A stretch of 64,000 nt of DNA from Minisyncoccota bacterium (GTDB lineage: Bacteria > Patescibacteriota > Minisyncoccia > UBA6257 > XYB1-36-10). The DNA is taken from the NCBI GenBank assembly GCA_041651415.1, contig JBAZJH010000002.1:111075-175074 (forward strand). The letters are read 5' to 3'. Positions 1,537 to 63,319 of this stretch are shown here, in pieces. How positions within the stretch are numbered: position 1 is the stretch's first letter; every line of letters begins with the position of its first letter. The position numbers were made by a program, and so were the translations under genes. The notes under the pieces were generated by a model that was given only the letters and a program-made list of their open reading frames with translations, ran no database searches and was not told where the DNA came from.

Positions 1537-2012
1537 TTTGTTTCACGTGAAACAAATAAATTATATTATCAATAAGATAATAATGTATTTCTTCGACAAA
1601 CTCAGAAAGTAAGTCGAGTGTTTGACGTGAAACATTGTTTTTTATGATTGTTTATTTATGCGGTTTTTTATAAATAGTGTTTTACGTGAAACACTATTTT
1701 TATTTTTTAGGCAGTTTTAATGTTTAACGTGAAACATTGTAATTGCCTGTTTTGACGTTTCACGTGAAACAATTTTTTAGAATTGGCTTATTTATGAGAA
1801 TATCCGGTTAAAAATTAAAGAGAAGACAAAATTTAAATATTTTTAGTGTTTTACGTGAAACATTAAAAAGGAGAGAAAGAAGGTTTTTGAGGTGTTTTAA
1901 TTGTTTCACGTGAAACAATATTATAGATATCCTTTATTTATGCGGATATCGGGTTTCTTTTTTGAGTGATATAATGATTTTAAGATAGTTTTAATGTTTG
2001 ACGTGAAACATT
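1537..2012. repeat. parS: array of 8 parS (ParB/Spo0J-binding centromere) sites, each matching TGTTNNACGTGAAACA
   Basis: Eight 16-20 bp palindromes at about 1537-1556, 1617-1637, 1675-1696, 1721-1740, 1757-1776, 1844-1867, 1900-1919 and 1993-2012. Two are the perfect consensus TGTTTCACGTGAAACA; the rest differ only at position 6. Irregular 33-93 bp spacing. Confidence 0.7.
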
Positions 2013-2015
2013 GCA

Positions 2016-2414
2016 ATGGCTAAACATATAGAAATAGGACGAAAAGGAGAAGAAATCGCTTGTGGATATCTTTTAAAAAAAGGGTATAAGTTGGTAGAAA
2101 GAAATTATCGAGAAAAATATGGAGAAATTGATATTATCGCTATAAATAAGGCTAAAATCTTAGTTTTTGTTGAGGTTAAAACATTAAAAATAGCGAATAT
2201 TGCCGAAGTGGATAATTCGGCAAAATTGGGGATAACTCCGGAAGATAACCTAACGGGAGTAAAATTGGCTAAAGTTAGGAGAACTGCTGAATTCTATGCC
2301 AATAGCCATCCGGAATTTATAAAAGAGGGAAAAGGATGGCAAATAGATCTTCTAGCGATTTTTTCAGAGGAAGAAGGCAGATATTTAATAAGGCATTATG
2401 AGAATGCGTCATAA
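2016..2414 (+). CDS. YraN family (UPF0102) putative endonuclease
   Basis: 132-aa protein with the YraN pattern ...GEEIACGYLLKKGYKLVERNY...GEIDIIA...VFVEVK. Confidence 0.65.
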   Translation: MAKHIEIGRKGEEIACGYLLKKGYKLVERNYREKYGEIDIIAINKAKILVFVEVKTLKIANIAEVDNSAKLGITPEDNLTGVKLAKVRRTAEFYANSHPEFIKEGKGWQIDLLAIFSEEEGRYLIRHYENAS

Positions 2415-3945: not shown

Positions 3946-4074
3946 ATAATGTAATCCTTCAACAAGCTCAGAAACTAATAGTCGTTTTACTTTATTCAAA
4001 TAGACCGAGCAGAAAAAAAGTTGAAAAAAACAAAAAAATCAATTATAAGTTTCTTAAAATTAAACCAATAAATT

Positions 4075-15800: not shown

Positions 15801-15897
15801 ATAAAATTTAAATGAGAAATAACTAATTTTTAATGACTAAAAATCGTTTATGAGAAGATTTTAGCTTAAAATTTTAAAAATTCCAAGTTTTAAAAAA

Positions 15898-16025
15898 TGA
15901 AACTCCACGGCTTTACGGCCGTAGAATCTTAAAGTTTCACCCCGCCTACGACGGGGTTTTATTAAATCTTTATCATTTCAACTCCCGCGCTAATGCACGG
16001 GGTTTTCGTGGAGATTTAATAAAAA
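15898..16025 (+). repeat. copy A of a ~125-bp structured intergenic repeat (MITE/REP-like family, 5 copies in the window)
   Basis: AAACTCCACGGCyTTACGGCCGTAGAATCTTAAAGTTTCACCCCGCCTACGACGGGGTTTTATTAAATCTT ... GAGATTTAATAAAA; two GC hairpins plus an 11-bp inverted pair TTATTAAATCT/AGATTTAATAA. Confidence 0.7.
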
Positions 16026-16147
16026 AAAATTTTGACTGGTTTGTAAAAAAGATTTTTTGCCAGTTTTTTATTGACTTTGAGTTTTGAAAGAGAGATACTG
16101 TTTAGGAAAAGTTAATAAAAAGGATAAATTATTCATAAAAATCCAAG

Positions 16148-23984: not shown

Positions 23985-24046
23985 TTTCTAATTACTAATA
24001 TCTGATTAATGACTAATTAAAAAATTTTAGTAAATTTTTAAGAATA

Positions 24047-24099
24047 AAAATAGCTTTGAAAAACAGGGCTAATCACCAATCGTTTTTCAAAGCTATTTT
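24047..24099 (+). terminator. terminator hairpin with conserved loop CAGGGCTAATCACCAATCG (family X)
   Basis: agctttgaaaaa-[loop]-tttttcaaagct followed by ATTTTT; the same loop sequence recurs at 27491, 42784 and 42905. Confidence 0.5.
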
Positions 24100-24313
24100 T
24101 ATTCTATAAATTATTCAGTAGAGAGAGGGATGGTGGTAATAATGCCCCGATGGAATACGGGGTAAATATTTTACTTCGTAAAAAATTATTTTTTAAATAA
24201 TTTTAATTGTGGAGATTTTTTATTTTTAAGGAGAAAAAATAGAAAAATAAGGGAGCTGTCTTCCGCTCTCCGCCAGTTGGCGGAGCGGATTTAATGGCAA
24301 CTTTGATTTTGTT

Positions 24314-27456: not shown

Positions 27457-27490
27457 AATAAATTATTTTTTTAAAAACGGAGTAAATAAG

Positions 27491-27548
27491 AAAAAAACAG
27501 CTTCAGAAAACAGGGCTAGTCGCCATCATTTTCTGAAGCTGTTTTTTT
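27491..27548 (+). terminator. terminator hairpin, family X (loop CAGGGCTAGTCGCCATCA)
   Basis: cagcttcagaaaa-[loop]-ttttctgaagctg followed by TTTTTTT, directly after polA. Confidence 0.5.
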
Positions 27549-27652
27549 CTTTAATTTTAAAAGGGTGGTAGAAGGTGATAATAAGCCCCGCCTATAAAAG
27601 GCGGGGTAAAGTAGTTCTGACGTAAGGTCGGAGCTTTTTATCTTTTTAAATA

Positions 27653-27681
27653 TTGACAGGTTTGGGAAATTTGTGTAGATT
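27653..27681 (+). promoter_or_regulatory. conserved promoter TTGACA-17-TAGATT (copy 1 of a duplicated promoter + leader module)
   Basis: Near-identical ~125-bp promoter + leader also at 43060-43187; partial copies at 31596-31649 and 60985-61040. Confidence 0.55.
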
Positions 27682-27778
27682 TGGCTTAGAATCAGGTTAG
27701 TTAAAAAATGAAATCCGCCTATGGCGAGATAAAGTCCGCCTAAGCTAAAAACTACGGCGAGACAAAAGGAGAAGAAAA

Positions 27779-27991
27779 ATGGAAACAAATCAGGTTTGTG
27801 AATTGAGAGATTTAGATTTGGTAAAAAAATTGGTTAGCACAATTGAGACATATGAGAGAAATTGGGAATACATGACAAAAGAAGATAGGGAGAAACAAAA
27901 AAAAGAACAAGAGGTTTTAGAAGGGGAGATTTTGAAGAGGCTAGGGGAAAGACAAGTGTTTAAAGAGATTGTTGCGACTACTATTTCTTAA
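27779..27991 (+). CDS. hypothetical 70-aa protein, paralog of the 43186 ORF
   Basis: Shares LxDLxxLxxxLVKKL and EILKRLGE-like segments with the 43186 product; same conserved leader upstream; terminator at ~27995-28040. Confidence 0.5.
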   Translation: METNQVCELRDLDLVKKLVSTIETYERNWEYMTKEDREKQKKEQEVLEGEILKRLGERQVFKEIVATTIS

Positions 27992-31390: not shown

Positions 31391-31649
31391 AAAATTAGTT
31401 AAAAGTTTAAAGTTTATAAAGTTAAAAGGAAAAAGCTAGTAGATAATAGGTTGAGTAGATAAAGTTTTATAGTGGGATGGAGAATGATAAAAAGATAGCT
31501 CCTCTGATTATATCGGAGGAACTTTTGGTTTAAGGAGTAAAAAAGATTTGACCTTTTTTATGTTTAGTTATATAATATGGGAAGAATTTTGAAGCTAAAT
31601 TAAAGAAGTCCGCTTACGCTAAAACTATGGCGAGAAAAAGGAGAAAGAA

Positions 31650-32138
31650 ATGAACAGAGAAAAAATACTTGAAGGAGCCAAAGAATTTTTTTTTGAGGGG
31701 ATGTTGGCGAGATATTTCGGTCACCGAGATGGAAAAAAAATAACAAAGATAGAATCATCCGATGGTTGTAATGATATTGTGTTTAGAGATGGAGATTTTA
31801 AAGTGGTTGACCGGTTTTACATAACTCCGGATTCCGATTTTTCAGCGGGGACAACGACGATTTTCTTTGAGAACAAGCCGGTGTGGTGGATGGCTTATGG
31901 GGGATGTTATCCTGCTGAAGCCATTGCTTTTTTAAAAATGGCTTTAAAGGAGAATTATGAGAGAGGTACTTTTTTAGGGGGGAGAGGGCCAAAGTTAGTG
32001 GAAGAAGAAAATTTTGTTTATCGGAATGAAGTCAGAATGTCAGATTTCAAAATTTTTAATGGGCGGGAAAGTATTGTGGATTTAGAAGCTGAAAAGGAAT
32101 TGGGTTTTCATGAATATTTTGGCATGGCTTTAATATAG
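31650..32138 (+). CDS. hypothetical protein (162 aa) carrying a partial copy of the conserved leader
   Basis: Upstream ...AAGTCCGCTTACGCTAAAACTATGGCGAGAAAAAGGAGAAAGAAATG matches the leader family. Confidence 0.5.
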   Translation: MNREKILEGAKEFFFEGMLARYFGHRDGKKITKIESSDGCNDIVFRDGDFKVVDRFYITPDSDFSAGTTTIFFENKPVWWMAYGGCYPAEAIAFLKMALKENYERGTFLGGRGPKLVEEENFVYRNEVRMSDFKIFNGRESIVDLEAEKELGFHEYFGMALI

Positions 32139-32188
32139 CCAAACCAAAAGCAAAGAACTCTAAAGCCTGGAAATTTTTCCGGGCTTTT

Positions 32189-32314
32189 TTATTAAATCTC
32201 CGCTTCAAACTTCGCGCGCTATCTTAAGGGGTTTGAAGCGGTAAAGATTTAATAAACCCACGCCTAGGGCGGGGTGAAACTTGAAGAAACCACGGCCGTA
32301 AGGCCGTGGAGTTT
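32189..32314 (-). repeat. copy B of the ~125-bp MITE/REP-like repeat (inverted orientation), abutting the ileS stop codon
   Basis: Reverse complement matches AAACTCCACGGCCTTACGGCCGTGG...CACCCCGCCCTAGGCGTGGGTTTATTAAATCTTT...GAGATTTAATAAA. Confidence 0.7.
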
Positions 32315-35300
32315 TATTTTAGAGAAACAGAGATTTCGCCGAAGTTTTCAAAAGGGGAGGTTTTATTGATTCTTTGAGTATTAGCTTTTGAATAAAAGAT
32401 TTTTTTAAGGGAGCAGGCGGAACAGATTTCTTTTTCTTTGGCAGAAAAAATAGAGGAAAGATTTTCGGGAGCGGATTCAATATAAAGATTAACAAGCTCA
32501 CCAGGCTTTAAGTCGGCTTCACCGCGGAGAGATTGAATAAGGCGGATGAATTCACGAACGAGGCCTTCGGATTTCAATTCGGGAGTGATATTCAAATCAA
32601 GCCAAACTTCTTTTTTGTCAGGAAGATTATTTTCGAAAGATACTTTTTTAACGTTGACTTCGTCTTTTAGAATTTCGAGAAGATTGGCGGATATTTTTTC
32701 CGCTGATTTTATTTTCATTTCAGAAAGAGGCTGACGGACTTTGATGCCTAAAGCAGAGCGTTCGGCAAGGCCGAGGCTGGACCAATCTTTTACAAGAGTC
32801 ATTTCTTTTAAAAGCTTTTCGTTAAATTTTTCAGCTTTTGGCCAAGAAGAAAGATGAACGGAATTTTTGAAACCGGATTCTTTTTTAAGGGAATTAAGGG
32901 AGAGATAAAGATAGTCGGAAAAGAAAGGCGCAAAAGGAGCCATAATTTTACTTAGGGCGAGGAGAGAATTATAAAGGGCAAAAGAAGCGTCAAGGCGGTC
33001 CCGACCGAAACGTCGGGACAAATTGCCTGAAGCGATTTGAAACCTTGAGCGGGAACGGCGGATAAACCAGCGGGAGATATCGCTTAAAAGTTCTTCAATT
33101 TTTCTGCCAGCCGGAGGAATGTCATATTTTTCAATAAGTTCTTCCGTTTCTTTTATGGTTTTAGAGACGCGGGAAGTGAGCCATAAATCCAGAGGATTAG
33201 TGAATTTTTTTACTGACCCAGAAAGAGAGCCGTAAGTTTTCAAATAAAGAAGGCAATTTTTGACGATATTAAAAACATTAAGCGAGACTTTTTTTAGGTC
33301 GTCCTCGTTAAAATTTTTAGTTTCACCAGCGTCGTTTAAAGTGAAAAGATACCAGCGGACAGAATCGGCGCCGTATTTATCAAACATTTCCCAAGGGTCG
33401 ACGATATTGCCGCGGGACTTGGACATTTTTTTGCCGTTTTTGTCGTTGATCAAGCCAAGAGAAATGACGTTTTTATAAGGAGCGCCTTTTTCAAGAAGGG
33501 TGGAGATGGCAAGAAGAGTGTAGAACCAGCCGCGGGTTTGATCCATAGCTTCCGAAATATAGTCGGCAGGGAAAATTTTTTTCTTATCAATCAGGTCCTT
33601 ATTTTTGAAAGGATAACCAGAGGCGGCAAAAGGCATAGCGCCGGAATCAAACCAGACGTCGACAAGTTCCGGAATTCTTTTCATTTTTTCGCCGCAAGAA
33701 CAAGGAATTTTGATTTCATCGATAAAAGGGCGGTGCGGGTCAAGAAATCCGTCGTCGTTTAAAGGAATATTTTTAAAAGGCAGAGGTTTCCATTCGGCAT
33801 TTTTCAGAAAAAAATCTTTAACTTTAAGATTGTTTCCGCTTAAAGATTCCGCGAGAACGCGAAGAGGGTCTTCGTGCCCGACGATGAGAATATTTTTGCC
33901 GTCATATTTTTTGTCGATTTCTTTCAGAGCTTTCATTATTCTTTTTCTGACTTGATTCAGATTTTCTCCGTTTGCCGGGGACTGCTCGTATTTTTCTTTA
34001 AAAGAAGAAAAAAGCTTTTTGTAAGAAGAAGCGGATTTTTCATTTAATTCTCCAAAATCGGTTTCGCGAAGACGTCTGTCAAAAATTAAAGTTTTTATTT
34101 TCAGGGATTTTTTGATAATTTCGGCGGTTTCTTTGGCTCTTTTTAAGTCAGAAGAAAAAATAATATCGATATTCAACTTCTTTAATTTTTCGGCGGATTT
34201 TTCAACTTGAAGACGGCCTTTTTTAGTAAGAGAATTGGCTGTTTTTTCAGGCCAAGAGGAATTGAATTTGTTTTTATTAGAAAGAGCTTCGCCGTGGCGG
34301 ATGGCAAAAAAAGAGTTTTTTGAAGGAAGGGGAGAATCGGCGAGCTCTTTTAAAGAGCTGATTATTTTTTCTTGTCCGCATTTATGGCATTGCCAGATGG
34401 GAAGAGGTGTGCCCCAATATCTTTCTCTTGAGAGCGCCCAATCTTTGATGTCTTTCAGCCATTCGCCAAAACGGCCTTCTTTGATGTGAAAAGGAATCCA
34501 GTTGATTTTTTCGTTATTTTTTAAGAGAGCGTCTTTTAAAGAAGACATTTTAATAAACCAAGAGGAGCGGGCGAAATAAATGACCGGAGTGTCGCAGCGC
34601 CAGCAGAAAGGATAGTCGTGCTCGTAAAGATTTTCCGACAAAAAGAAATTATTTTTTTTCAAATAAGCAATTATTTTTTCTTCGGTTTCTTTTGATTTAA
34701 CGAAAAGGCCGGACAGTTCCGGAACAAAATCTTTAAAGTGACCGGACTCGTCGACGGTATGAACTTCGGGGAGACCGACTTCTTGGCCGAGGCGATAATC
34801 ATCTTCGCCATACATAACGGCGGTGTGGACGACGCCGGTGCCGTCAGTCGTTGTGACAAAATCGGCGGGATAAACCTGATAAGATTTTTCTGATTGCAAT
34901 TCTTTTATTTTGAAAAGAGGTTCGTATTTTAAGCCAACCAAGTCGGCGCCGGAAAATTCTCTAATTTTTTCTCCAGTAAAAATATTTTTATCAGAAAGAG
35001 GAGAAGCAATAAAGGCTTCTTCGCCATCAACAGACTTTAAAAGCGAATACTTTATTTTTTTTCCGACAGCTAAGGCGACGTTTCCGGGAAGAGTCCAAGG
35101 AGTGGTGGTCCAAGATAAAATAAAAGTTTTATTGCCGATTCTAAAGTCGCCGATTTTTTGGCCGGGAAGGAGCTTAAACTTCAAAAAAACAGAATTGTCT
35201 TTAACGATTTTATAACCTTGGGCAAGTTCGTGGCTGGAAAGACCGGTGCCGCAGCGAGGGCACCAGGGAATTATTTTGTGTCCTTGATAGAGAAGATTTT

Positions 35301-42783: not shown

Positions 42784-42977
42784 AAAAACAAAAACATCTC
42801 TGAAAAACAGGGCTAATCGCCATCATTTTTCAGAGATGTTTTTGTTTTATAAATTATAAAGAATTGGTTTAAATTAAGGAGAAATAAATATTAAAACCAA
42901 AAACAATCCTTCAAAACAGGGCTAATCACCAATTCCATCAAAGACGGACAGGCTGTTTTTAGGAATGTTTTTGGTTT
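42784..42977 (+). terminator. two tandem family-X hairpins (loops CAGGGCTAATCGCCATCA and CAGGGCTAATCACCAATTCC...) after the UDG gene
   Basis: 42784-42848: stem catctctgaaaaa/tttttcagagatg + T-run; 42889-42977: longer stem aaaaccaaaaacaatcc/ggaatgtttttggtttt. Confidence 0.5.
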
Positions 42978-43059
42978 TAGTAAAAACTTTTTTAGAGGGG
43001 GAGGAGGTGATAATAATGTAACTCCGACCTTGCGTCGGAGTTTCTCATCTTTTTAGAAG

Positions 43060-43088
43060 TTGACAGGTTTAGGAAATATGTATATATT
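43060..43088 (+). promoter_or_regulatory. conserved promoter TTGACA-17-TATATT (copy 2 of the promoter + leader module)
   Basis: ~125 bp nearly identical to 27653-27778. Confidence 0.55.
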
Positions 43089-43185
43089 TGGCTTAGAATT
43101 AGGTTAGTTAAAAAATGAAATCCGCCCATGGCGAGATAAAGTCCGCCTAAGCTAAAAACTACGGCGAGACGAAGGGAGAAGGAAA

Positions 43186-43482
43186 ATGGCTGAATTACAG
43201 GATTTAGCTTCGCTTAGTAATGAGATTTTAGTAAAAAGATTGATGGAGGTGGTATCAGCTTGTAAAGTAGCGAGAGTAGAAGGTTTTGTTGGGGTGTCTC
43301 GACTTGAGTATGGGTTGATGGAAAAAAATAAAAATGAATTAGAGGCGGAGGTTTTGAGGAGGTTGGAGGAAGCGGAAGAATTAAAATCACATTCAAAGCC
43401 TTCTTTCTCTGGGATTCCATATGAGGTTGCTCTTGAGGCCGGAATGATTGCAACTGAAATGAGGGAGTTTGAAGAGCTTTAA
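43186..43482 (+). CDS. hypothetical 98-aa protein, paralog of the 27779 ORF
   Basis: Shared leader and shared sequence blocks; terminator at 43499-43525. Confidence 0.5.
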   Translation: MAELQDLASLSNEILVKRLMEVVSACKVARVEGFVGVSRLEYGLMEKNKNELEAEVLRRLEEAEELKSHSKPSFSGIPYEVALEAGMIATEMREFEEL

Positions 43483-50866: not shown

Positions 50867-51097
50867 GAGAAGAAAATCATTTAATTTTTACTGGTAGAAA
50901 GTTAAATAAAAGAGGAGGGTGGGGTGATAATATTGCCCCGATAAAATACGGGGTAAATATTTTTCTTTGTAAAAAAGACCGTTTGGATTTTAAGGTTTTT
51001 GAGGAATTTGGCTTTTTTATTCAGGAAATGCTATAATCAAGCCATAATTAGAAAAGCAGGAAAGGTCGTTTTAGCTTTTAAACTTTAAAATTTCTCA

Positions 51098-54104: not shown

Positions 54105-54713
54105 ATGAATATGCGGTTTTTTGATTTTCCGAACAAAATTAAATTTCCGGCTTTGTTTATTGCCATAATTCTTTTGGCTTATTTGTTTTGGAGAATAGTT
54201 TTAGTCGGAGGGTCTTTTGTGCCAAAGGAATTTTTAGAAGCAAATCAGCAAGGAGCTTTAATAGCCACTCAAATAGTGGATTTTTCAAAAAAATCGGTTA
54301 GCAATATTGATAAAATCAATGATTTAGACAGAGAGGAAAATTATTCCGAGGCGCTCAATCTGATTATGGAAGAAATAAGCAGAAACGAAGAGATGAAAAA
54401 AGAAGCTTATAATCTTTCGTTTGAATTGGCTAAAATGGCGGAAACTTTAAAAGAAATAAAACCGAAAGTGGCAACGGAAACAGCTTTGCGAGGAATAAAT
54501 TATGAAACTTCTTTAATAATCCGGTTGATAAACTACAACGCTTTTATGGGAAATCTATTAATAACTTTGAGAGATAAATTTACGGGGAAGATGGTGGAGG
54601 AAGGAAAAGTGGGAGAGATAATCAAAAAAATAAACGACGAGGCGACGGCGATAAATGATTTAAACGAACAGTATAAGGCGGCGATGAATGAGTTTGATGA
54701 GAAAATAAAATGA
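54105..54713 (+). CDS. hypothetical membrane-anchored protein (202 aa)
   Basis: N-terminal TM helix; coiled C-terminal region. Confidence 0.45.
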   Translation: MNMRFFDFPNKIKFPALFIAIILLAYLFWRIVLVGGSFVPKEFLEANQQGALIATQIVDFSKKSVSNIDKINDLDREENYSEALNLIMEEISRNEEMKKEAYNLSFELAKMAETLKEIKPKVATETALRGINYETSLIIRLINYNAFMGNLLITLRDKFTGKMVEEGKVGEIIKKINDEATAINDLNEQYKAAMNEFDEKIK

Positions 54714-54838
54714 AACTTCACGGCCTTAAGGCCGTAGAATCTTAAAGTTTCACCCCGACCAAAGTCGGGTTTTATTAAATCTTTACCGCGAAAACTTCTA
54801 AACTGACATGCGGGGTTTGAAGCTGAGATTTAATAAAA
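54712..54838 (+). repeat. copy D of the ~125-bp MITE/REP-like repeat, followed by a CTCCGA-type terminator (54841-54868)
   Basis: GAAACTTCACGGCCTTAAGGCCGTAGAATCTTAAAGTTTCACCCCGACCAAAGTCGGGTTTTATTAAATCTTTACCGCG...GAGATTTAATAAAAG. Confidence 0.7.
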
Positions 54839-54871
54839 GATCCTCCGATACAATCGGAGGATCTTTTATGT

Positions 54872-55208
54872 TGGTGCCGCGAGAGGGAATCGAACCCCCG
54901 ACACGATGCTCTTCCAAATAATGAATCTCAAATTACTTTGAGGATTGGACTATATCATCACCCATATAAATGGGGCTAGGCGCTTCCTCCAACCTAACGT
55001 CGGAGTACTCCGTTAAGGATAGTCTCTGAACCTTTCTAGCTCCAGTTCATAAAAAAACTGGGGCTGGACTTGGCTGCTGATTGCCCAGCTTCAGTTTTTA
55101 AAAAAACTGAAGCTGGGTTTCCAGCAATTCACCTAGTTTTCATTTCCAAATTACTTCGGAACGGCCCAAAGAGTTTAGGCATCTGCTCTACCACTGAGCT
55201 ACCGCGGC
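54872..55208 (-). tRNA. tRNA-Phe (anticodon GAA) interrupted by a group I intron in the anticodon loop; exons at 55177-55208 and 54872-54914
   Basis: 5' exon GCCGCGGTAGCTCAGTGGTAGAGCAGATGCCT and 3' exon GAAGAGCATCGTGTCGGGGGTTCGATTCCCTCTCGCGGCACCA join to a canonical tRNA-Phe (loop CUGAAGA, variable loop GUGUC). Confidence 0.7.
54915..55176 (-). ncRNA. group I self-splicing intron (262 nt) within tRNA-Phe
   Basis: 5' splice after U33, with exon GCCU pairing to a GGGC internal guide near the intron start. The intron ends in G. The core contains CAGAGACTA ... ATATAGTCC, matching the P7 strands of characterized group I introns (cf. Tetrahymena CAGAGACUA / AUAUAGUC). Confidence 0.65.
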
Positions 55209-55258
55209 TAACAAAAAAAGCTTATAATATTTTTCAAATCTATTCAATACTTAATAAA

Positions 55259-57883: not shown

Positions 57884-58072
57884 ATGAAAAACAGAATAAA
57901 GGAACTCAGAGTAAAAAGAGGAATGACGCAGGAGGAGTTGGCGGAAATGGCGGGAGTGAGGAGAGAGACGATTGTTTTTTTAGAGCAGGGGAAATATAAT
58001 CCGTCGCTTAATTTGGCGCATAGCGTGGCAAAAATCTTAAAAACCAAAATAGAAGATTTGTTTTTGTTTTAA
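57884..58072 (+). CDS. XRE-family helix-turn-helix transcriptional regulator (62 aa)
   Basis: [52 protein letters not shown] is a canonical Cro/C1-type HTH. Confidence 0.75.
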
Positions 58073-58076
58073 AAAA

Positions 58077-58204
58077 TAAAACTCTACGGCCGTTAGGCCG
58101 TAGAATCTTAAAGTTTCACCCCGCCTACGACGGGGTTTTATTAAATCTTAGCCGTGAAAATTCCTAAGTTGACATACGGGGTTTTCTCGGAGATTTAACA
58201 AAAA
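58077..58204 (+). repeat. copy E of the ~125-bp MITE/REP-like repeat, lying between convergent genes
   Basis: AAACTCTACGGCCGTTAGGCCGTAGAATCTTAAAGTTTCACCCCGCCTACGACGGGGTTTTATTAAATCTTAGCCG...GGAGATTTAACAAAAAA. Confidence 0.7.
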
Positions 58205-58236
58205 AGCCCGAGGGAGTCGGGCTAAGAGAGGGGAGA

Positions 58237-58696: not shown

Positions 58697-58911
58697 AGCA
58701 GTTCTCCTTTCTTTTTATTAGATTCAAAAGTGAGAGCTATTTATTTTTTAACTAATCTAGGTTCTGATTTAATAATAAGAGTTTTTTAGAAAAAGAAAAG
58801 AAATGTAATCTTTAGACAAGATTAGAAACTAATCTTGTAAAATAGGAAAGGCAGTTGTTTTTAAGAAGAAGCGTGGTAAAGTAAAGGCAAATTATAATTA
58901 GCTTTTAAAAT

Positions 58912-60843: not shown

Positions 60844-61040
60844 CAAGTTTATATTTTGATAGTAAAAAACAGCCGAAAAATATTTTTAGCGGTTGATTTT
60901 TTTCGGATATCGAGAGGTGTATAATAAGGACAGAATTTTGAGATAAAAAAACCTTGCCAGACAGCGGGGTAAAGTCCGCCTACATTATGGTTATAGTGAG
61001 ACATCCCGACGCAAGAGTCGGAGCAAGAAGGAGAAAGGCG

Positions 61041-61583
61041 ATGAGTGCGGAAAAAGAAAGGAAAAAAAATGAATTTTTTGGAGGGAATGAAAAACTTTTG
61101 GAAGTGAGAAATAGAATAATTATTCCCTCTTCTTTTGATATTAAAGGAAGAGGGATAACTGGGTTATTGGAAAATAATGAAGTAGAGATAAGAAACGGAG
61201 CGGGGGAGATGGATTGGATAAGAGGCGGATATGGAGAGACTTCTGAATCAGGAGTTTTAACAATTAAGATTTTAGATCCTCTTAATGCATCCGATATAAT
61301 AAGAACAGAAAAAAAGGGGAGAGAGTTTTTAATTAAGAGAACTTTAACTCCTTTACAGGTTTCTTTTGTTCTTATTTCTGAGGCGGGCAGATTTTTAGAG
61401 AAGAAAGGCGGTTATAATTATTTGTTCTTTATTTTCAATCCGGATAGAAAAGAAGAGGAAGGAAAACTTTTTGTTTTAGAGATAAGCTGGCTTTCTTCGG
61501 AAAAAAGATGGCAAGGATCTTTGACTGGAGAAAATTTTCCCAATAAAAAAGATCCGGGAAGTTTGATATTTTTGAAAAATTAA
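61041..61583 (+). CDS. hypothetical protein (180 aa; start moved to the Met with RBS)
   Basis: RBS GGAGAAAGG before ATG 61041; upstream region carries a partial copy of the conserved leader (AAGTCCGCCTACATTATGGTTATAGTGAGAC). Confidence 0.4.
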   Translation: MSAEKERKKNEFFGGNEKLLEVRNRIIIPSSFDIKGRGITGLLENNEVEIRNGAGEMDWIRGGYGETSESGVLTIKILDPLNASDIIRTEKKGREFLIKRTLTPLQVSFVLISEAGRFLEKKGGYNYLFFIFNPDRKEEEGKLFVLEISWLSSEKRWQGSLTGENFPNKKDPGSLIFLKN

Positions 61584-63021: not shown

Positions 63022-63319
63022 AAAGATTTTTGTTTAATTTTAGAGAATAATTGTAGGGATAAAAAAATCAGAATATGATTTTAAGAGAGCGCTCCAAGGC
63101 CGCTAGGCCGGTCTTACTCTCCTAAAATCATATTCTGATTTTTCTTTAAAATTATTTTGAAAGAGGGGGAAGAGGTGATAATAAGGAAGCTCCGACACAA
63201 GGTTGAAGTTTTTATTTTATTTGAAAAGAAAAGAAGCAGAGAGTAAGATTAAAAAATAATAAATTTTAATGTAATCCTTCGATAAACTCAGGAAATAATA
63301 TCAAGACTGATAAAAAAAT

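Follow-up and report, generated by a model that had tools for sequence, protein, structure and literature searches.

What is the block of about 125 bp that stands, almost letter for letter, before two small genes of this genome, and why does its core return ahead of two others? The window, by which we mean the whole analysed stretch of 64,000 nucleotides, is chromosomal DNA of a Candidatus Paceibacterota MAG and encodes polA, a histidine kinase, RNase J, IleRS, SmpB, tmRNA, IF3, L20, ClpB, S20, RNase Y and other housekeeping genes. The first-pass annotation had described the block as a promoter-plus-leader module driving paralogous small genes, its core being either a leader RNA structure or the operator of a regulator dedicated to at least four genes.

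Promoters and hairpins of the duplicated leaders

The near-identity of the two blocks is real. Pairwise alignment of 27653-27781 with 43060-43188 gave 9 differences in 129 positions (∼93% identity), and a repeat search extended the pair to 27607-27782 and 43014-43189 at 87%. The likeness stops at the start codons. Differences between copies 1 and 2 amount to 1 in 53 nt of the hairpin region, 5 in 57 nt of the promoter and 3 in 19 nt of the SD region; that the hairpin region has the fewest fits gene conversion or selection, and the two copies have probably been homogenised by gene conversion. The core is indeed found twice in copy 1, as had been noted, and copy 2 is double as well, each with a short and a long form. 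The two additional occurrences were also recovered, at about 31605-31638 and about 60971-61004. The paralogy proposed for the 70-aa and 98-aa proteins is weak: both are small and helical, and they are linked by a BLASTP match of E = 0.01 over 25 residues and an hhalign probability of 13%.

The core is a small RNA hairpin, which we call M1. Its lower stem, 5'-GUC-CGCC...GGCG-A-GAC-3', comprises seven pairs and one bulged A on the 3' strand. Above it lies a 3x3 internal loop, UAC (or UAA) opposite UAC/UAU (UAY), followed by an upper stem-loop that is freely variable and is absent in a minimal form of 18-21 nt. Loops are UAU, UAAC or variable, loop length (the half-site spacing) runs from 3 to >20 nt, and the flanks are A-rich. 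CTAC, or GTAG on the opposite strand, is present twice, inside M1 as the internal loop. Folded alone, the short hairpin of copy 1 takes the drawn structure at -7.2 kcal/mol (z = -3.4) and the long one at -9.8 kcal/mol (z = -3.5), and the closing stem of the short form (AUC/GAU) is compensatory with respect to GUC/GAC. The third and fourth hairpins of the window are weakened, and their predicted minimum-free-energy folds differ from M1. Both duplicated leaders leave the SD unpaired in their minimum-free-energy folds. Table 1 gives the coordinates.

Table 1. Promoter-like sites, hairpins and downstream genes at the four M1 loci of the window. L143 is the one locus with a homolog of the 98-aa gene, and L025 is the locus of a DUF5680 ortholog.
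Feature	Position	Strand	Basis or remark
Promoter-like site, copy 1 (TTGACA-17-TAGATT)	27653..27681	+	10/12 match; kept in copy 2 and L143
Imperfect palindrome AAATTTGTGTAGATTT over the -10 hexamer	copy 1 promoter, within 27653..27681	+	palindrome search
Short 'A-type' hairpin AUC-CGCC-UAU-GGCG-A-GAU, triloop, bulged A	27713..27730	+	14.8 bits
Long 'G-type' hairpin GUC-CGCC-UAA-GC..C-UAC-GGCG-A-GAC	27734..27763	+	46.8 bits, E = 3e-12
SD GGAG (27768-27771) and 70-aa orphan ORF (27779-27991)	27768..27991	+	no Pfam match; strong-SD class
Promoter-like site, locus 3 (TTGACC-17-TATAAT)	31548..31576	+	11/12 match; identical in L025
Weakened hairpin GUC-CGCU-UAC-GC..C-UAU-GGCG-A-GAA, U-G wobble, G-A closing mismatch	31608..31636	+	40.4 bits; intact in L025
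SD GGAG (31640-31643) and DUF5680 gene (31650-32138), 162 aa	31640..32138	+	PF18931, E = 4.9e-09
Promoter-like site, copy 2 (TTGACA-17-TATATT), perfect palindrome AAATATGTATATATTT	43060..43088	+	promoter and palindrome search, L143 alignment
Short A-type hairpin, copy 2, loop CAU	43120..43137	+	11 bits
Long G-type hairpin, copy 2, identical to 27734-27763	43141..43170	+	44 bits
SD GGGAG (43174-43178) and 98-aa ORF (43186-43482), then rpsT	43174..43482	+	single homolog, P0002
Two other leader hairpins around 60974-61002	60951-60970 and 61006-61021		leader fold
Most divergent hairpin GUC-CGCC-UAC-..-UAU-AGUG-A-GAC	60974..61002	+	33.9 bits, E = 4e-08
SD GGAG (61030-61033) and 180-aa orphan ORF (61041-61583), then ECF-type sigma factor gene	61030..61583	+	no Pfam match, no homolog but itself

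The pattern TCCGCYYA-N(0-30)-GYGAGA matched the window seven times, against 0.06 expected from shuffles; a match at 33835, antisense within a 1169-aa ORF, is due to chance. With filters off, a covariance model run over the whole 64 kb placed just four loci above E=0.05. On the 8 kb of the contig that follow the window it found two further loci, one with a tandem pair ahead of an 85-aa orphan and one with a single hairpin ahead of an 81-aa orphan, which brings the total to nine hairpins at six loci in ∼80 kb. At all six loci M1 is in the sense orientation in the 5' leader. A sigma-70-like promoter precedes it by about 25-50 nt, and the predicted TSS is about 25 nt upstream of the first hairpin. 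Copies here are direct throughout, inverted doublets being absent from the six loci. The hairpin's 3' end is 3-5 nt upstream of a strong AAGGAG-type SD in five loci and 27 nt upstream of it in the fourth.

SD usage sets these genes apart within the window. No SD precedes 44 of the 65 called genes, including almost all housekeeping genes; a strong SD (AAGGAG/GGGAGA) precedes 12, for the most part small orphans, and these include all four hairpin genes. No M1 was found at the remaining strong-SD genes of the window. With the core at only 4 of 65 called genes, it is not the generic ribosome-binding-site context that the annotation had considered as an alternative.

Could the core act as DNA? As an operator for a transcription factor, or as an alternative-sigma promoter element, it would be common to four promoters; it is promoter-proximal and at first sight a dyad. 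However, the dyad is asymmetric by one bulged base, its half-sites are spaced anywhere from 3 to >20 nt, the TAC repeats are direct and not inverted, some 30-50 nt separate the core from the -10 hexamer upstream and place it in transcribed sequence, and the covariation of the stems is that of RNA or single-strand pairs. Variable loop length, asymmetric bulge, direct repeats and stem covariation together establish a single-strand hairpin and speak against a double-stranded DNA operator, which we regard as barely credible. Of the two possibilities raised at the outset it is the leader RNA structure that holds, given the hairpin, the compensatory stem changes, the sense orientation and the position between promoter-like site and SD at every locus here. 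A better candidate for an operator, and the only good one, would be the palindrome AAATATGTnTATATTT, which spans the -10 in copies 1 and 2 as well as in L143 and is separate from the core.

Several other identities were considered for the leader. A leader peptide, MKSAYGEIKSA (ATG AAA TCC ... TAA in copies 1 and 2), was rejected: it has no SD, it is not conserved at the other loci, and the stems covary as RNA. A K-turn was rejected because tandem G-A pairs are lacking. The GUC/bulged-A/GAC arrangement is presumably similar to the foot of 16S helix 22, where S15 binds; when an E. coli rrn operon was searched with the covariance model for such rRNA mimicry, no match exceeded 6.6 bits, which lends the idea no support from E. 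coli rRNA. We also take the 5' arm RAGUCCGCC to resemble the 3' half of the tRNA T-arm, and CCUAAG..UAUGG to resemble the 11-nt tetraloop receptor.

Covariation and occurrence of M1 in other genomes

The paired character of M1 was examined by alignment. Among 39 sequences, 96% of cells pair, compared with 26-40% when the 3' partner is slid, and double changes occur in all six of the six upper-stem pairs. A 69-match alignment, fitted to the model, has 97.4% of cells paired and double changes in 7 of 11 pairs. The inner stem varies yet stays paired, as GCCC/GGGC, GCAC/GUGC, GUCGCGUC/GACGCGAC and others. Compensation in the lower stem took the forms GCC...GGC with a bulged C (L080, L062), CACC...GGUG (L043), AUC...GAU (the window, L057, L099, L082) and CGCU...AGCG (L148, in the same genome just past the window), all of them in divergent copies found by the covariance model, the search patterns having fixed those positions. 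Both sides of the internal loop likewise change together: L061 and the reverse-complement copy of L066 have UUC/UUC for UAC/UAC. Since the exact-match scans fix most lower-stem positions, the apparent invariance and the closing-pair G-U excess are partly built in; the count of G-U versus A-C by strand says little on the closing pair, where the search pattern allowed Y.

With each GTDB species represented by one genome (185,579 genomes), an exact-pattern scan returned 29 stretches, most of which are coding-region chance matches in high-GC genomes (the estimated chance expectation is ∼50). Five credible intergenic matches, in three phyla going by the record titles, come from a Daviesbacteria genome (L005), a Falkowbacteria genome (L021, tandem), a Paceibacterota genome with the DUF5680 ortholog (L025), a Planctomycetia MAG (L019) and a Gammaproteobacteria MAG (L020). 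The planctomycete locus is an array of 21-nt minimal units before a putative ribonucleotide reductase (RNR), which by our own reading would belong to class II. A metagenome scan added 67 stretches on contigs of GC 0.31-0.68, most of them with the same M1 architecture and a canonical, covarying inner stem, and other contigs carry 2-3 copies per short contig. The covariance model gave 49 matches of at least 30 bits in 60 loci, plus weaker divergent copies.

Databases of known elements were then compared with these loci. At the gathering threshold, Rfam 15 identified only tmRNA, tRNAs and a group I intron in the whole window; for 27640-27790 at E ≤ 10 the best match reached 12.8 bits, and all were far below gathering. 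Twenty M1-bearing loci yielded only tRNAs, and the canonical copy of L102 yielded nothing. String and keyword searches of full-text literature (RNA and DNA strings, CPR RNA motifs, spurious repeat peptides) returned nothing relevant. A BLAST search with the two-unit consensus found no match among PLSDB plasmids and INPHARED phages, and a scan of IMG/VR gave only coding-region chance matches, all without the inner stem. M1 is a dispersed hairpin repeat family in several bacterial phyla, absent from Rfam. The striking point is that ∼20 nt stay almost unchanged across genomes from 31% to 68% GC.

The genes behind M1 here are small and mostly orphan. The 98-aa protein has one homolog in 5.8 billion sequences, and a homolog search with the 180-aa protein returned essentially only itself. 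Downstream products over all genomes comprise orphans, DUF5680, DUF5320, a PIN_4 protein, lipoproteins, small membrane proteins, L7/L12 (rplL), RNR and a purD-like protein, and no common Pfam family was found among the proteins downstream of M1, here or elsewhere.

This diversity bears on two alternatives. M1 might be a small riboswitch or ion sensor, its internal loop binding a ligand and controlling the adjacent SD. The conserved unpaired UAC/UAY and bulged A next to the SD would suit such a role, as would the tandem arrangement known from some small riboswitches and, in L005, a possible competition between a purine tract and a terminator. Against it stand the functionally unrelated downstream genes (orphans, rplL, the putative class II RNR, purD-like, lipoproteins), the minimal 18-21-nt forms that have no internal loop (the short form of the window, L019), an SD that the folds predicted for the duplicated leaders leave free, the copies behind tRNA genes and in arrays, and the lack of any Rfam riboswitch match; we consider it very improbable. 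Nor do the genes lend much to the idea that the hairpins are operators of an RNA-binding regulator encoded at the locus, a mini-regulon in which the 70-aa and 98-aa proteins would act as repressors of their own mRNAs and of a few others. Tandem sites do precede these two small helical proteins and single sites the others, and hairpins with a bulged A, such as M1, are classic protein operators, for example that of the MS2 coat protein. But the two proteins are barely similar, many other M1 genomes yield no homolog of either, and the sole homolog of the 98-aa protein in 5.8 billion sequences has a hairpin-less leader. This explanation is improbable, if slightly less so than the riboswitch.

Gain, loss and placement of the hairpins

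The homolog locus of the 98-aa gene, L143, shares 51% protein identity with the window by BLASTP local alignment (57% by MAFFT pairwise alignment) and has rpsT as its neighbour, as in the window. It retains the upstream terminator, and also the promoter, including the palindrome AAATATGTGTATATTT that covers the -10 hexamer; identity in the promoter and the first ∼25 nt of the leader is about 88%, counted from the alignment. In place of the window's 57-nt hairpin pair, L143 has 11 nt, and both hairpins are missing. The hairpins are thus an indel relative to a conserved promoter, and the single evolutionary 'promoter + leader module' of the first-pass annotation finds no support. The 125-bp duplication would consist of a conserved promoter, with its own palindrome over the -10 hexamer, and an inserted hairpin pair.

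The DUF5680 ortholog of L025 (65% identical) presents another case. Its 5' region is 96% identical overall to that of the window, and the hairpin is kept in its intact form. Five of the 12 non-coding substitutions between the two fall inside the 29-nt hairpin, and it is the window copy that has lost the pairs; this looks like decay and not like purifying selection. No hairpin was found upstream of the more distant DUF5680 orthologs.

Placement in other genomes varies with GC content. In contigs of GC ≤0.46, an SD-like motif lies within 16 nt at 17 of 31 matches, 12 of these with a properly spaced start codon; in contigs of GC ≥0.54 this holds for 1 of 17 matches. An AAGGAGG tract follows the hairpin in L102, L020, L021, L005 and L070, with no ORF start there. 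A terminator lies further downstream in L005, and there alone the purine tract behind the hairpin might compete with it. Antisense copies occur in L054 and L068. Six M1 matches in five contigs sit 0-70 nt downstream of tRNA genes, in either orientation (L053 twice, L057, L071, L080, L099; GC 0.42-0.65), and a copy in L050 lies 3 nt upstream of a tRNA. Copies flanking tRNAs are often inverted doublets, made of a G-type hairpin and the reverse complement of an A-type or UUC-type one, foldable as one long hairpin. The high-GC contigs L057, L099 and L066 carry inverted doublets; L087 and L061 carry tandem triples.

A second hairpin family, M2 (UCCUUCGAC..CUCAGGA; (G)UCCUUCGAC-N4-5-CUCAGGAC), co-occurs with M1 and has the GUCC...GGAC foot and AAG flanks in common with it. 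In L077 M2 forms an array of eight 25-nt units, in L005 it flanks M1, and in L089 it is nested within the M1 upper stem; the window has three to four diverged copies.

The unrelated downstream genes, minimal forms, arrays and doublets, tRNA flanks and ortholog indel all point to a dispersed repeat that evolves in the manner of REP elements, and not to a dedicated regulon or a metabolite riboswitch. The four-gene regulon proposed for this locus finds no support, as M1 is dispersed over many unrelated genomes, before unrelated genes, by tRNAs, in arrays and in inverted pairs. M1 would evolve REP-like, with several copies per genome that are gained and lost between orthologous leaders.

It is a further step to regard M1 as a selfish or neutral REP/MITE-like DNA element, mobilised for instance by a hairpin-recognising transposase, with leader copies merely tolerated and any effect on RNA incidental. 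Presence or absence between orthologous leaders (L143, the distant DUF5680 orthologs), tandem arrays (the 21-nt units of L019, three in L087, L061), REPIN-like inverted doublets (L057, L099), the six matches 0-70 nt behind tRNA genes in five contigs and the association with M2, including the 8-unit array in L077 and the nesting in L089, all agree with such an element. So do the faster change of the hairpin than of its flanks between the window and L025, the sporadic and rare occurrence (5 credible matches in 185,579 species genomes), and the fact that this genome has other dispersed repeats, one of them a MITE-like element at an assembly breakpoint. On the other hand, all six loci here are sense, five with an SD 3-5 nt on, and more than 12 independent loci elsewhere are alike; copy number is low; near-invariant sequence over GC 0.31-0.68 is unusual for REPs; GTAG/CTAC lies inside the hairpin and not at its foot as in REPs; and no transposase, of the Y1_Tnp or any other family, was seen among the Pfam-annotated genes of ∼80 kb of the genome. 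We consider a purely selfish or neutral element, the main rival explanation, possible but rather unlikely.

The regularity of placement in this genome and in CPR-like contigs, sense and abutting a strong SD, is too great for random insertion and favours a role at the RNA level; it is from position that this role is read. The explanation that we prefer, with about even confidence, is that leader copies act as RNA, presenting a stable hairpin beside an exposed SD and affecting 5'-end stability and/or 30S loading, perhaps through a factor that reads the sequence. The hairpin would abut the SD and leave it unpaired, and it may set the stability of the 5' end (RNase J and RNase Y are both encoded) and/or the access of the 30S subunit. 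A trans-acting factor would probably read the stem, the bulged A and the internal loop, and such a putative factor would account for their invariance.

Some points run the other way. The window copy looks decayed beside that of L025, and the third and fourth hairpins do not appear in the predicted minimum-free-energy folds. A simple stabiliser or insulator hairpin needs no invariant sequence. Copies that are antisense (L054, L068) or downstream of tRNA genes elsewhere fit a repeat at the DNA level.

A bolder and unlikely possibility is that M1 and M2 (GUCCUUCGAC..CUCAGGAC) belong to a class of structured RNA 'handles' that is so far undescribed, extends over several phyla and is recognised by some universally conserved component, be it the 30S platform, a ribosomal protein or an RNase. 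Sequences so nearly identical in genomes of 31-68% GC would then be accounted for. From a place immediately 5' of an SD, or behind a tRNA, M1 would steer the initiation of translation or the processing of RNA, and in the SD-poor Patescibacteria it would set apart a special group of small genes that depend on an SD. If the constraint is functional, M1 would be a new and very small RNA motif of distant phyla with a fixed position by ribosome-binding sites, and would open a way into the organisation of translation or mRNA decay in Patescibacteria. If M1 is merely REP-like, its description is still useful annotation, explaining the duplication, several spurious ORF calls and assembly breakpoints in CPR genomes. 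Natural controls for reporters are at hand in the hairpin-less leader of L143 and in the intact hairpin of L025 versus the decayed one of the window.

Comparison with known systems

Among known leader RNAs, the pan motif (RF01749) and guanidine-II (mini-ykkC) are likewise very small hairpins, often tandem and close to the SD, and the pan motif has conserved bulged adenosines. M1 differs in having no Rfam match at relaxed thresholds, no ACGR loops and no association with pantothenate or guanidine genes. The coat-protein operators of the RNA phages MS2 and PP7 are also bulged-A hairpins by a ribosome-binding site and serve as sequence-specific handles for a protein, an analogy that extends to how they work only; M1 loci are chromosomal and many, and the hairpin excludes SD and AUG.

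The likeness to REP/REPIN elements (repetitive extragenic palindromes, BIMEs) goes further. M1 is a short (20-45 nt) imperfect palindrome with a bulge that defines its orientation, its copies would be scattered outside genes, several to a genome, with tandem clusters and, in other genomes than this one, inverted doublets, and it is present or absent between close relatives. REP elements are mobilised by RAYT Y1 transposases, and transcribed ones act as mRNA stabilisers or terminators; to our knowledge they are lineage-specific. Unlike them, M1 is strictly sense and SD-adjacent here at low copy number, its core is near-identical across phyla and very different GC contents, its CTAC lies in the 3x3 loop with no 5' GTAG head, and no RAYT gene was seen in ∼80 kb of the genome.

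The Gram-positive 5' stabilisers (the ermC and aprE stem-loops, the cryIIIA STAB-SD) share with M1 a stable leader hairpin and/or an SD-like purine tract close to the 5' end, in a host with the 5'-3' exonuclease RNase J. The AAGGAGG after M1 without a start codon in L102, L020, L021, L005 and L070 is particularly reminiscent of STAB-SD. We know of no conserved sequence among these stabilisers, whereas that of M1 is conserved, and the predicted start of M1 is some 25 nt away from the TSS and not at the 5' end. By analogy, M1 may work most like a REP/REPIN element transcribed within a leader or like a Gram-positive 5' stabiliser.

Initiation signals and post-gene elements

Across the window, no Shine-Dalgarno (SD) motif was found in 44 of the 65 called genes, nearly all housekeeping genes included, and the sequence upstream of these 44 genes is A/T-rich. 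A strong SD (AAGGAG/GGGAGA) was detected only in 12 of the 65, mostly small orphans of 59-111 aa. The lack of SD in the larger group and the confinement of strong SD to the 12 genes suggest that this one small genome has two classes of initiation signal.

The recurrent 3'-module lies in the stretch that separates gene ends from the next promoter, and is followed by a GC hairpin and then a U-run. Its GGAGGUGAU segment is a perfect complement of the anti-SD, and at 43003-43016 this segment stands before an ATG-TAA start-stop. In the long post-gene hairpins the stems covary, whereas the 17-nt loop (ACAGGGCUAAUCRCCAAY) is conserved; AUCACC within the loop resembles the 16S 3' end, and the loop is complementary to GGUGAU ~40-70 nt downstream. 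Rfam searches with these hairpins gave generic long-hairpin noise only.

Positions of the features (window coordinates unless a locus is named; L143, ortholog locus of the 98-aa gene; L148, the window's own contig past its right end; L005, L077 and L089, outside loci)
Feature	Window	Other loci	Remarks
3'-module 'GAGGG..GGTGATAATAAKG'	24120-24185, 27563-27650, 42995-43055, 50905-50975, 63150-63225		
Long A/U-flanked hairpins	24040-24110, 27487-27545, 42785-42850, 42890-42975	L143 40-130, 185-260	directly 3' of genes
M1 leader		L148 13524-13590	1.3 kb past the right end; precedes 85-aa orphan gene
M1 leader		L148 15296-15329	3.0 kb past the right end; precedes 81-aa orphan gene
M2 hairpin	1590-1610, 3956-3975, 63276-63295; diverged copy 58810-58830	L077 4380-4560; L005; L089 270-290	
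Palindrome GGAAATATGTnTATATTT	27665-27682, 43072-43089	L143 347-364	overlaps -10 hexamer of duplicated promoter
Palindrome GTTTCACGTGAAAC	1540-2020		6 copies in ~450 bp around small UPF0102/NucS-like gene
Group I intron	54926-55186 (-)		Rfam match
~140-nt non-coding repeat	15887-16026, 54700-54839, 58066-58205		reverse-complement-like copy near 32160-32300

Leader hairpins and palindromes

One hairpin of the two M1 leaders beyond the window has a compensatory lower stem (CGCU/AGCG). A second hairpin family found across genomes, M2, has the form (G)UCCUUCGAC-N4-5-CUCAGGAC, with extra flanks TAATGTAAT / ACTAATA on the window copies. M2 is nested within M1 in L089, and in L077 it forms an array of 8 x 25 nt that was called as a spurious ORF ('SFDFAQDKFLRLRSGQ...').

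The promoter palindrome is kept in L143, the ortholog without M1 hairpins. It is a candidate repressor site, separate from the hairpin core. The arrangement of the GTTTCACGTGAAAC copies resembles an array of operators or iterons.

Intron-split tRNA gene and dispersed repeat

The group I intron sits in the anticodon loop of a tRNA gene and splits it into the exons GCCGCGGTAGCTCAGTGGTAGAGCAGATGCCT ... GGGGGTTCGATTCCCTCTCGCGGCACCA; ARAGORN did not call this gene (flanks 54870-55240). The point at which L147, a second contig of the same sample, diverges from the window is exactly the ~140-nt repeat copy after the DUF5680 gene, which points either to a rearrangement in a strain or to a branching of the assembly at the repeat. 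With three GC hairpins in its interior and inverted repeats at its termini (TTATTAAATCT / AGATTTAATAA), the repeat looks MITE-like.
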